64,000 bases of DNA from positions 1,428-65,427 of the forward strand of contig CAIMUP010000013.1 of assembly GCA_903844645.1 (NCBI GenBank), in the 5' to 3' direction. This stretch comes from an uncultured Bacteroidota bacterium (GTDB lineage Bacteria > Bacteroidota > Bacteroidia > AKYH767-A > JABDAW01). Position 1 is the stretch's first letter; each line of letters begins with the position of its first letter. The notes under the pieces were generated by a model. The model made no database searches. It was not told the origin of the DNA and worked only from the letters and a program-made list of their open reading frames with translations. This document shows positions 50,300 to 52,849 of this stretch, one piece after another. Made by a program: the position numbers and the translations under genes.

Positions 50300-51544
50300 A
50301 TGAGAGCACTTGAGAAGAAAATGAAAGCCTATACCGCGCCGGAAGAAGTGAAGGCATTGGGGATTTATCCTTACTTCCGCGAGGTGGGTTCGGGGCAAGA
50401 TACCGAGGTGATGATCGAAGGAAAAAAAGTCCTTATGTTCGGCTCGAACAGCTACATGGGGCTGAATAATCATCCCGAAGTGAAGGCTGCCGCGAAGAAG
50501 GCGATTGATATGTACGGCACGGGATGTTCCGGCTCGCGTTTCTTGAATGGGACATCGGTTATTCACATCGAATTGGAGGAAAAACTGGCGAACTTTGTGG
50601 GCAAGGAAGCGTCCTTGGTTTTCAGTACCGGCTATCAAACAAACCTTGGCGTGGTGGGAACCTTGACGGGTCGGCATGATTATATTATTCTGGATGAATT
50701 GAATCATGCTTCGATTATTGAGGGCAGCAGATTATCGTTTTCGAAGGTCTTAAAATTCAGCCATAATAACATGAATGACTTGGAAGATTTGCTAAAGAAA
50801 TTACCTGCCGATAAGATTAAATTAATCGTTGTAGATGGTATCTTTAGTATGGAAGGCGACATCGCCAAACTCCCTCAAATTATGGCTCTTGCCGCGAAAT
50901 ATGATGCTGCCGTTATGGTGGATGATGCCCATTCATTAGGCGTTCTCGGGAAGACGGGTAAGGGCACGGCAGATCATTATGGTTTGACCGATCAGGTGGA
51001 TATGATTATGGGCACTTTCAGCAAGTCTTTGGCATCCCTCGGGGGCTTCGTGGCGGCGAATGCAGATATTATTAAATACCTTAAGCACCATGCCCGCGCT
51101 TTGATATTCAGTGCAAGCATTCCCCCTGCTTCTGCGGCTACCGCGATGGCGGCTTTGGATATTATTCAGCGTGAGCCGGAACGCATCGTGAACCTTTGGA
51201 AAAATACCCATTACATGATAGCGGAATTAAAGAAAGAAGGCTTCGATTTGGGCATTACCGAGACTCCGATTATCCCAATTTATATTCGCGATAACATGAA
51301 AACTTTTATGTTCACGAAGCGGCTGTTCGATGAGGGGATATTTGTGAATCCTGTGGTTAGCCCTGCCGTGAAAAGCGATTCTTCTTTGATACGAATTTCC
51401 CTCATGGCGACCCATACCAAGGAACAAATTGATAAGACGTTGGAGAAGATTTATATGATTGCAAAGGAACTGGAATTATTCGAATTTCAGGCGACAAATG
51501 CCGGCAATCATTCCAACCATGCTGGCGACGATGATAACTTATAA
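50300..51544 (+). CDS. alpha-oxoamine synthase family PLP enzyme (serine palmitoyltransferase / 8-amino-7-oxononanoate synthase-like)
   Basis: 414 aa; 'SNSYMGL', PLP-lysine region '[16 protein letters not shown]', '[10 protein letters not shown]'; the typical AOS fold. Confidence 0.85.
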
Positions 51545-51691
51545 GGCAATGATGACGCCATTGCTGGCAATGATGACGCCAACGCCGGCAAAGACGACAA
51601 CTACGCTGGCAAAGATGACGTCTACGCTAGCAAAGACGACAACTTTGCTGGCAAAGATGATAGCTTTGCTGGCAAAGATGACAGCTACGCC
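51524..51691. repeat. 21-bp tandem repeat, 8 copies (unit GGCAAAGATGACNNCTACGCT), starting inside the 3' end of the AOS gene
   Basis: Units at 51545, 51566, 51587, 51608, 51629, 51650 and 51671, with a degenerate copy at 51524 that encodes the AOS C-terminus '...AGDDDNL*'. Confidence 0.92.
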
Positions 51692-51721
51692 ATCCCAAAT
51701 AACCTTAATAATGATATAATT

Positions 51722-52849
51722 ATGGAAATAACAATCAAAAAAGTCGAAAACGGAGCCGATAAGAAGAAGTTTATTGACTTCGTTCATGATTTATATGCCG
51801 ATGATCCGAACTATGTGCCTGAACTTTACATGGCGCAAAGCGATTTGATGAATCCTAAGAAGAATCCTTTCTTTTGGCATTCCAAGGCGGATCTTTTTCT
51901 TGCTGAACGCGATGGAAAAGTGGTAGGAAGAATCGCCGCCATAAGGAATAATAATTATAATGAATACGCGAAAACCAAAGTCGGCTTCTTCGGGTTCTTC
52001 GATGTTATAAATGATTATGAAGTGGCTAAGAAATTACTCGATACCGCTAACGATTGGATTAAAAAGGAAGGCTTGACGGACATTATAGGACCTACAAATT
52101 TCTCTACCAATGAAACTTGCGGCTTATTAGTAGAAGGTTTGGATTCTGCGCCTGTAATTATGATGACTTATAACAAGGCTTATTACAAAACCTTCTTAGA
52201 TAAATATGGTTTTACTAAGCAAATGGACCTGATTGCATACGTCCTGGACCCGATGGATATGCCGGAAAAGCTATTGCGATTAGCAAAAGGGATTGAGGAG
52301 CGTTTGAAGAGAAGAAACATTACCGTCCGCAAGATAAATATGAAGGATTTTAACAACGAAGTAGCCAAAGTAAAGGAAATTTATAATGCTGCCTGGGATA
52401 AAAATTGGGGTTTTGTGCCGATGACGGATGACGAATTCAAATTCCAGGCTAAGGATATGAAAATGATATTAGATAAAGACTTCGCGTATGTAGCCGAAGA
52501 CAACGGAAAGGTCATCGCGTTCTCATTAACTATTCCGAATGTGAACGAGGTGTTCAAAACCATCAAGCGGGGCAGGTTATTCCCGACGGGGCTGTTAAAA
52601 TTAGTATTAAATAAGAGCAAAATATCCAGCGTACGTGTGATTACATTGGGGGTGTTGGAGGAATATCGGAAGCTGGGTATAGACGTCGTGTTTTATGCTA
52701 AGAACATGGAAACCGCCCAACAGAAAAAACTTAAATATGCAGAGGCTTCCTGGATTTTAGAGAACAATAAGGAGATGAATTCTCCCTTAATTTCCATCAA
52801 TGCGAAGCCTTATAAAACATATCGTATCTTTGAGAAGAAGATAGTATGA
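51722..52849 (+). CDS. hypothetical protein, possibly a GNAT-fold N-acyltransferase
   Basis: 375 aa; 'VGRIAAIRNN...VGFFGFFDV' resembles a GNAT beta4-alpha3 motif; weak. Confidence 0.45.
   Translation: MEITIKKVENGADKKKFIDFVHDLYADDPNYVPELYMAQSDLMNPKKNPFFWHSKADLFLAERDGKVVGRIAAIRNNNYNEYAKTKVGFFGFFDVINDYEVAKKLLDTANDWIKKEGLTDIIGPTNFSTNETCGLLVEGLDSAPVIMMTYNKAYYKTFLDKYGFTKQMDLIAYVLDPMDMPEKLLRLAKGIEERLKRRNITVRKINMKDFNNEVAKVKEIYNAAWDKNWGFVPMTDDEFKFQAKDMKMILDKDFAYVAEDNGKVIAFSLTIPNVNEVFKTIKRGRLFPTGLLKLVLNKSKISSVRVITLGVLEEYRKLGIDVVFYAKNMETAQQKKLKYAEASWILENNKEMNSPLISINAKPYKTYRIFEKKIV

Follow-up and report, generated by a model that had tools for sequence, protein, structure and literature searches.

A lineage-specific 21-bp tandem array between the spt and acyltransferase genes of an uncultured Bacteroidota bacterium, and the small open reading frame that bridges it

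A 64,000-nucleotide stretch of contig CAIMUP010000013.1 from an uncultured Bacteroidota bacterium, referred to here as the window, carries a tandem array of 21-bp units between spt, encoding a serine palmitoyltransferase (alpha-oxoamine synthase), and the gene encoding a GNAT-like acyltransferase. Judged by comparison with related lineages, the array is a private insertion at a junction of two ordinary, separate genes. Its notable property is that a small open reading frame (ORF) bridges it in the +1 frame from one gene to the other, a property common to every operon-internal array examined. We consider it probable that the array is a translated spacer resembling the interspersed repetitive units of mycobacteria (MIRUs), that is, a private minisatellite whose bridging ORF would preserve translational coupling between its neighbors; the relay of ribosomes that this entails is inferred from the arrangement of starts and stops described below.

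The junction between spt and the acyltransferase gene

The spt gene (50300..51544, plus strand; NF047600, PF00155) encodes a protein of 414 aa, and the acyltransferase gene (51722..52849, plus strand; PF00583) a protein of 375 aa. The array occupies 51503..51691 on the plus strand as nine 21-bp units in register (consensus GGCAAAGATGACACCTACGCT), with units 1 and 2 located inside spt and units 3-9 past its stop; Tandem Repeats Finder (TRF) reports a period of 21, 6.1 copies and 78% matches at 51563-51690. Matches to the consensus number 14, 12, 16, 17, 19, 19, 16, 17 and 19 of 21 for units 1 through 9, respectively. Since the two spt-internal units match the consensus beyond chance (approximately 5e-5 for the 14/21 of unit 1 and 2e-3 for the 12/21 of unit 2), the repeat starts within the spt ORF, as was observed in an earlier note on this DNA. 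Specifically, the ORF ends ...HAGDDDNL followed by TAA, and the same frame (frame 0) then reads GNDDAIAGNDDANAGKDDNYAGKDDVYASKDDNFAGKDDSFAGKDDSYAIPNNLNNDII, composed of the heptads GNDDAIA, GNDDANA, GKDDNYA, GKDDVYA, SKDDNFA, GKDDSFA and GKDDSYA followed by IPNNLNNDII, without a stop up to the ATG at 51722. As 51722-50300 is divisible by 3, the spt and acyltransferase ORFs are in phase, and the in-frame heptad array running into this ATG is present as the earlier note described it. The final 30 nt of the insertion (51692..51721, plus strand), directly 5' of the acyltransferase start codon, form an AT-rich tail with no counterpart in relatives. Five independent assemblies, among them two Logan contigs and one MEGAHIT contig, agree in every letter of the 361-nt segment that spans the stop and the array, which confirms the TAA and demonstrates that it is not an assembly error.

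The history of the junction can be read from seven related lineages (L006, L086, L089/L090, L091/L092, L095, L096 and the contig of P0003), all of which lack the array. In six of these the spt stop is followed by GCT or GCC and then by ATG, a spacer of 3 nt, while the P0003 contig has a spacer of 6 nt; in all seven the second gene is in frame 0. The nearest genome, L006, encodes an Spt 92% and an acyltransferase 89% identical to those of the window, and its junction reads ...TDVEEEL TAA GCC ATG ATA ACA. Acyltransferase identity is 86% for the P0003 contig and 81-84% for the remaining five lineages, and complete Spt proteins measure 411-417 aa, a range that includes the 414 aa found here. When the junctions are aligned with MAFFT, the window TAA (51542..51544, plus strand) falls on the TAA of five relatives (L006, L086, L089, L091 and L095) and a single 174-nt gap follows right after it, and the start of the acyltransferase is likewise kept (MEITIKKVEN in the window vs. 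MITIKKVEN in relatives). By this alignment, the array is a lineage-specific insertion that lengthened a spacer of 3 nt, as in relatives, by a net 174 nt, and both the spt stop and the in-frame relation of the two genes are ancestral. The genes are in phase because the ancestral spacer was 3 nt long, and any insertion of a multiple of 3 preserves that phase.

Frame continuity from spt through the array to the ATG at 51722 had led the earlier note to propose that an ancestral fusion of the two enzymes was split by a nonsense codon, or that the TAA is a site of programmed readthrough, either of which would yield an Spt–linker–acyltransferase protein. Comparison with relatives removes this tempting false lead, and we regard both versions as exceedingly improbable. 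An ancestral fusion is ruled out by the separate genes of the seven related lineages, in which Spt is of normal length and no linker is present, by 51 more distant loci with both genes, in all of which spt ends at a stop of its own and the acyltransferase is encoded separately, and by the 120 best GNAT homologs, where a search for the fused two-domain protein that the note envisaged found none: all are 354-393 aa long, with a GNAT domain at most and no aminotransferase domain. Against programmed readthrough, TAA is the ordinary and commonest stop in the window (38 of 44 genes) and the downstream extension occurs in none of the seven lineages; a stable RNA structure is predicted downstream of the stop, as expected for a repeat. 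The likeness to split genes and to programmed readthrough lies in a frame that stays open beyond a stop and on into the next gene; the present case differs in that no fused ortholog exists in the sets searched, the stop and the frame relation, the latter inherited from the 3-nt spacer, are ancestral, and relatives lack the extension.

A related proposal is that the (AGKDDxY)n sequence was once translated as a C-terminal extension of Spt and was later removed by a nonsense mutation in unit 2. The presence of units 1 and 2 within the spt ORF would fit such a history, as would a stop-free frame 0 with gene-like codon usage (0.52 bits/codon; window genes 0.27 +/- 0.08). This proposal is nevertheless a poor candidate, as ...TTA TAA aligns with the L006 stop (TDVEEEL* vs. 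AGDDDNL*, 14/21 nt) and with the TAA of all relatives, the length of 414 aa lies within the clade range when random truncation within 59 codons would give such a result only about 1 time in 8, and no in-frame stop is left at the array's 3' end, the site expected for the ancestral stop under such a history. Nor is there a significant synonymous excess among the frame-0 unit variants, for which the synonymous fraction is 0.34 vs. a column-permutation mean of 0.21 (p = 0.15).

This last result also bears on the clear coding-style constraint that the earlier note attributed to the heptads, and which is not established. An antisense frame of the same array is more 'synonymous' than frame 0 (45 synonymous and 37 non-synonymous differences), other, plainly non-coding arrays display equal or stronger mod-3 lumpiness, and another array reaches 0.51 bits/codon in one frame. 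Openness is similarly common: past the stop, three of six frames (+0, +1 and -0) are open, just under half of all frames are open across the 21-bp arrays of the window, and a tally of the open-frame fraction across all arrays revealed no sense-strand bias, with sense approximately equal to antisense. Frame 0 stays open and in phase because the period equals seven codons and the genes were already in frame, and the third suggestion of the earlier note, in-frame expansion of a repeat by chance, is in essence correct. As a general caution, every tandem array with a period divisible by 3 will seem 'in frame' and 'coding-like'.

Bridging reading frames and translational coupling

The ORF that traverses the array intact is in the +1 frame and was overlooked in the first reading. 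This ORF (51549..51719, plus strand; 56 aa, MMTPLLAMMTPTPAKTTTTLAKMTSTLAKTTTLLAKMIALLAKMTATPSQITLIMI) begins with ATG ATG 4 nt after the spt TAA and ends with its own TAA 2 nt before the acyltransferase ATG at 51722; the frame itself is open from 51459, within the 3' end of spt, to 51719. Two further arrays in short co-directional gaps of the window are bridged in a comparable manner. Specifically, a 96-aa ORF (1791..2081, plus strand) runs through the array at 1859-2044, overlapping the upstream stop as TAATG, with the start 1 nt inside, and the downstream start as ATGA, a 4-nt overlap, and a 66-aa ORF (41256..41456, plus strand) runs through the array at 41289-41426, starting 4 nt after the upstream stop and ending 3 nt before the downstream ATG. 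Against nulls generated from column-permuted arrays with shuffled flanks, the probabilities of such bridges are 0.055 for the spt–acyltransferase array, 0.006 for the array at 1859 and 0.024 for that at 41289.

Two loci from relatives, L181 and L182, were retrieved by means of the DUF4249 gene beside the array at 1859 and were used as a test after the window cases. In L181 the bridging ORF (7985-8293; unit TTTCCGTTCATGGCACCAAGT) begins 4 nt after the upstream stop and overlaps the downstream start by 4 nt (null probability 0.011), and in L182, where the array unit is a 42-mer (CGGCTGCATAGCCGCAAGTTT AGTTGCCTTAGCCGGAAGTTG), it occupies 9735-10000, beginning 4 nt after the upstream stop and ending 7 nt before the downstream start (null probability 0.005). 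All five arrays located in co-directional gaps of 310 nt or less, three from the window and two from relatives and built of unrelated units, are therefore bridged, vs. none of five reverse-complement (antisense) controls; the product of the five nulls, approximately 5e-10, is indicative only. Three of these arrays, of 21 or 42 bp, share one junction, that between a gene for a TonB-type outer-membrane barrel and the DUF4249 gene, in three species (the window, L181 and L182). There the units are completely different and the encoded peptides unrelated, even as the DUF4249 proteins remain 60-72% identical; the position of the array is conserved and its sequence has turned over.

Additional observations indicate what is retained in such ORFs. 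The ORF through the array at 1859 is called as 96, 117 or 124 aa in three assemblies with differing copy number, and both overlaps are kept in each; they survive changes in copy number because the period equals seven codons. Codon usage in the bridging frames is poor, ranging from -0.05 bits/codon for 51549-51719 to -0.2, vs. the positive values of genes given above, as would be expected if these ORFs need only stay open. The conserved thing in bridging ORFs is openness and not a protein. Arrays in gaps of at least 373 nt present a different picture: none of eight is fully bridged and two of eight are partially so, by ORFs ending 7-9 nt before the downstream start, and several of these arrays lie upstream of a -7 promoter box (TAnnTTTG), that is, outside the downstream transcript. 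Two long ORFs composed mostly of array units, at 28713-29198 of the window (161 aa) and at 2682-2987, minus strand, of L177 (101 aa), stop 7 and 9 nt short of the next start and begin 58-66 nt after the previous gene, the former starting 18 nt after a -7 box, TAATTTTG; these ORFs may be translated leaders. In public gene calls the L177 ORF and the ORF through the array at 1859 are listed as hypothetical proteins.

The arrangement at the spt–acyltransferase junction suggests the following model. A 21-bp minisatellite of non-coding origin would have grown, in this lineage only, at the junction of two tightly coupled genes. Spt terminates at its normal, ancestral TAA, which would leave the frame-0 AGKDDxY linker untranslated, and ribosomes finishing spt would restart at ATG 51549, 4 nt downstream, translate the spacer in the +1 frame, terminate at 51717-51719 and restart at 51722. 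In this way the acyltransferase would stay coupled to spt despite the insertion, with the 177-nt spacer not left untranslated; the insertion would be tolerated because the bridging ORF spans the whole array, and copy-number changes of 21 bp could never break that ORF. The spacer is probably co-transcribed with the flanking genes, since its plus strand has neither a terminator-like nor a sigma-70-like site.

The founder unit was probably derived from local junction sequence, an origin that is not statistically secure: units 1 and 2 form the spt tail, stretches of window (TTATAAGGCAATGATGAC) and L006 (TTATAAGCCATGATAAC) sequence are colinear, and ATGATAAC in unit 2 is also the start of the acyltransferase in relatives. 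In addition, ATGATAACTTATAAGGCA (51531-51548) agrees at 14 of 18 nt with the sequence at which the acyltransferase begins in relatives (ATGATAACAATTAAGAAA, MITIKK); this agreement, not significant alone, hints at an origin of the units by duplication of a start region.

The insertion could instead act as a regulatory spacer that uncouples the downstream genes, either through an internal promoter or through a stable intercistronic RNA protecting the spt message; REP/BIME elements (repetitive extragenic palindromes and bacterial interspersed mosaic elements) of E. coli form stable intercistronic RNA structures that protect the upstream message. In favor of a promoter, the sequence TAGCTTTG in unit 8 (51661..51668, plus strand; 53 nt before ATG 51722) fits the Bacteroidetes -7 box TAnnTTTG, a motif located 20-45 nt upstream of many window genes. 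Approximately 0.09 such matches are expected by chance per spacer and strand, and no -33 element lies at the right spacing; TAGCTTTG may be an internal promoter or a chance match. In favor of a protective RNA, the predicted fold of the spacer reaches -62.2 kcal/mol with a z-score of -5.4, a score that partial self-complementarity inflates in any repeat. The units themselves are no palindromes: inverted arms within the consensus reach 2 nt at most. As relatives need no spacer at this junction, a regulatory role of either kind appears improbable.

A purely neutral minisatellite, generated by whatever process makes repeats in this lineage, in which the +1 ORF is accidental and the acyltransferase initiates independently on the AT-rich leader, is the alternative that we take most seriously, even if we consider it unlikely. 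The null probability for this gap taken singly is only 0.055, two of the three sense frames are in any case open, gaps of every kind, convergent ones included, hold arrays, and the spt–acyltransferase array is both invariant in copy number among the five assemblies and the most decayed of the window arrays (78% identity). What a neutral origin does not readily accommodate is the bridging of all five short-gap arrays when no antisense control is bridged, or the single junction that stays bridged in three species despite complete turnover of its units.

Several points weigh against the relay model itself. In addition to the modest null probability of the spt–acyltransferase ORF, the distance limits that define a bridge (-4 to +12 nt) were set after the first cases had been seen, the pattern having been recognized post hoc, and the sample comprises five junctions, three of which are one junction in different species. 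An internal promoter at TAGCTTTG would make a relay unnecessary. The scan of the relatives' junction for a founder unit returned matches of 12-14/21, with many better hits elsewhere, and the origin so sought is not significant. Finally, non-operon arrays also have a period of 21, so a relay cannot explain the period: a relay needs only a multiple of 3, and it offers no account of why 21 (or 42, or 63) is used rather than 18 or 24.

MIRUs, whose original description is reportedly that of Supply and colleagues in 1997, are the known system closest to the model favored here, in which the bridging ORF serves as a ribosome relay. An ORF internal to a MIRU has been described as coupled to the downstream gene, with insertion having little effect on downstream expression (PMC12548453). 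Both MIRUs and the arrays described here are repeats between operon genes, oriented as the genes are and carrying a short ORF whose ends abut or overlap the stop and start on either side, and in both the copy number varies with the ORF unbroken, as seen here for the array at 1859. At the spt–acyltransferase junction in particular, the array lies between co-directional operon genes that are 3-6 nt apart in relatives, and the gene-oriented ORF 51549-51719 abuts both flanks. The spacing differs, being a -4 overlap in MIRUs and +4/+2 nt in this array, although the -4 overlap is seen at 1791-2081 and in L181. A more fundamental difference is that mycobacterial MIRUs make up a single family, dispersed and apparently mobile, whose homologous units measure 40-100 bp, whereas the present arrays consist of 21-bp units that are unrelated by locus and by species, seem to be of local origin, occur in non-operon gaps too and belong to uncultured Bacteroidota. 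Because the units form no single homologous, mobile family, the spt–acyltransferase array is best said to work like a MIRU, by analogy, and not to be one. If the bridging ORF does act as such a relay, it illustrates how an operon can take up a growing repeat and yet keep translational coupling, and the solution proposed for MIRUs would have been reached independently, with non-homologous units, in another phylum.

Period-21 arrays in the window and its clade

The array at the spt–acyltransferase junction is one of approximately 13 in the window. TRF yields 16 non-redundant period-21 calls in the 64 kb, plus higher-order versions of 42 and 63 bp, and of the 16 intergenic gaps that exceed 170 nt, 12 are filled by arrays. 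In addition to those at 1859-2044, 41289-41426 and 51503-51691, they are located at 4111-4341 (period 42), 8711-8919, 28847-29093, 37951-38334 (two arrays, starting at 37951 and 38287), 43869-44152, 49949-50152, 54399-54722 (two, at 54399 and 54568), 58018-58151 and 61985-62200 (two, at 61985 and 62116). Other Bacteroidota loci serve as background, with 13 short period-21 repeats in 897 kb of one set and 3 in 490 kb of another, so that the density in the window is approximately 17 to 40 times as high. One of these sets derives from a metagenome scan with a MoxR-like protein for syntenic relatives of the arrays at 41289 and 43869, which returned only relatives of at most 72% identity. Arrays of period 21 or 42 are also found at various sites in L006, L086, L088/L093, L089, L181, L182 and the extension L177, and because near relatives carry them too, period-21 arrays are a trait of the clade.

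Two possible sources of this pattern were rejected. The arrays are not one dispersed repeat family, as the best cyclic matches between unit consensuses in the window follow the distribution for shuffled units, except between physically adjacent arrays. Nor are they an artifact of assembly (k = 21 loops), which is ruled out by imperfect copies, by the 42- and 63-bp higher order and by the agreement of independent assemblers, the spt–acyltransferase array being found in Logan contigs, a MEGAHIT k141 contig and scaffolds. Copy numbers of near-perfect arrays are uncertain in short-read assemblies, and the variation in length of sister arrays between assemblies may in part be short-read collapse, as exemplified by the 100 Ns within array 49949 in L002. 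No Rfam hit was obtained in the window, Pfam annotation of 20 further window proteins identified ordinary housekeeping functions and no candidate repeat-making enzyme, and literature searches for period-21 intergenic arrays in bacteria found nothing relevant.

Some arrays appear from their sequence to have been visibly seeded from terminator hairpins. In array 49949, unit 1 comprises the 3' arm, together with the T-tract, of a terminator-like hairpin that follows the diacylglycerol-kinase gene, and the array looks like a tandem multiplication of that terminator arm; the L177 array at 2821-2979 ends with an inverted partial unit and then a T-run. The hairpin in the 49913-50152 region (GCCGACCGG...CGGTCGGATATTTCC) has a predicted energy of -24.9 kcal/mol, and the length of array 49949 differs among assemblies by -42 and -63 nt, its copy number being unreliable given the Ns in L002. 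Palindromic, operator-like units are weakly enriched across the arrays as a set (p = 0.03), an effect that one array drives.

In comparison with bacterial variable number tandem repeats (VNTRs) or minisatellites, the arrays share an intergenic location, head-to-tail units of 10-100 bp (nine of 21 bp at the spt–acyltransferase junction) and the 42/63-bp higher order typical of unequal exchange. They differ in their extraordinary density in the window and in the use of one period (21/42/63) over unrelated units, and copy-number variability, expected of VNTRs, is seen in sister arrays and not at the spt–acyltransferase junction. Cyanobacterial short tandemly repeated repetitive (STRR) arrays are lineage-specific intergenic tandem repeats of a few conserved heptamers. 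The two have in common a period of 7 or a multiple of it, and heptamer arrays also occur in other Bacteroidota loci sampled; the window 21-mers differ from STRR arrays in that most have no heptamer sub-period and each locus has its own sequence.

Candidate causes of the fixed period are a mutational process that measures length and a structural preference for two helical turns. More broadly, and tentatively, it is possible that this clade, to approximately 60% protein identity, fills its intergenic DNA with locally seeded arrays of exact 21-bp multiples, those internal to operons persisting only as translated relay ORFs. If so, these arrays would represent translated spacers of a class not described before and maintained by selection, and would imply a length-measuring mutational mechanism or a two-helical-turn constraint not known in bacteria. 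The fixed 21-bp period poses a concrete question about replication or repair in the clade, period-21 arrays could serve as markers for strain typing, and small ORFs built of repeats are flagged here as a class that gene callers annotate as hypothetical proteins.

Two arrays are of additional structural interest. Those at 61985-62078 and 62116-62200 are mutual reverse complements (16/21 between consensuses), constituting a large inverted repeat of arrays at which several assemblies break. The array at 4111-4341 has a 42-bp period with 5.5 copies and an 84/126-bp higher order, is located in a convergent gap and has a unit containing short hairpins (CACATT...AATGTG).

The sphingolipid gene cluster

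The genes flanking the spt–acyltransferase array probably specify a bacterial ceramide pathway. Spt scores 684.8 bits against the NCBIfam equivalog NF047600 (cut-off 640), with residues 3-392 aligned to profile positions 4-393 of 395, so that the conserved enzyme ends near residue 393 of 414; the final 14 codons, stop included, are array units 1 and 2. The GNAT-like acyltransferase is probably a bacterial ceramide synthase, and the gene that follows it with a 4-nt overlap (52846..53853, plus strand; PF01370), encoding a 335-aa protein of the NAD-dependent epimerase/dehydratase family, probably a ceramide reductase. In Caulobacter, the bacterial ceramide pathway consists of spt, the acyltransferase gene bcerS and the reductase gene cerR (PMC11087976), and the same three enzyme classes are present here, the third window gene encoding an NAD-binding reductase of the epimerase/NDUFA9 class; the second and third window genes are likened to bCerS and CerR by domain class and adjacency to spt only. 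Consistent with a conserved gene order, 51 of 80 Bacteroidota loci retrieved with Spt have the GNAT acyltransferase downstream of spt, and most of the 51 also have the reductase. No NCBIfam model covers the acyltransferase family, most members of which are annotated as hypothetical.

Upstream of spt, the block CTGATTAACGGAAnAAAATATATCTTTG is conserved directly 3' of arrays in both the window (50176-50203) and L006 (5877-5904). It contains a TAnnTTTG -7 box approximately 97 nt before the spt ATG and is likely the spt promoter. In L006 the same place is occupied by a heptamer/21-bp repeat (TGTTCAC) whose sequence is unrelated to that of the window array.

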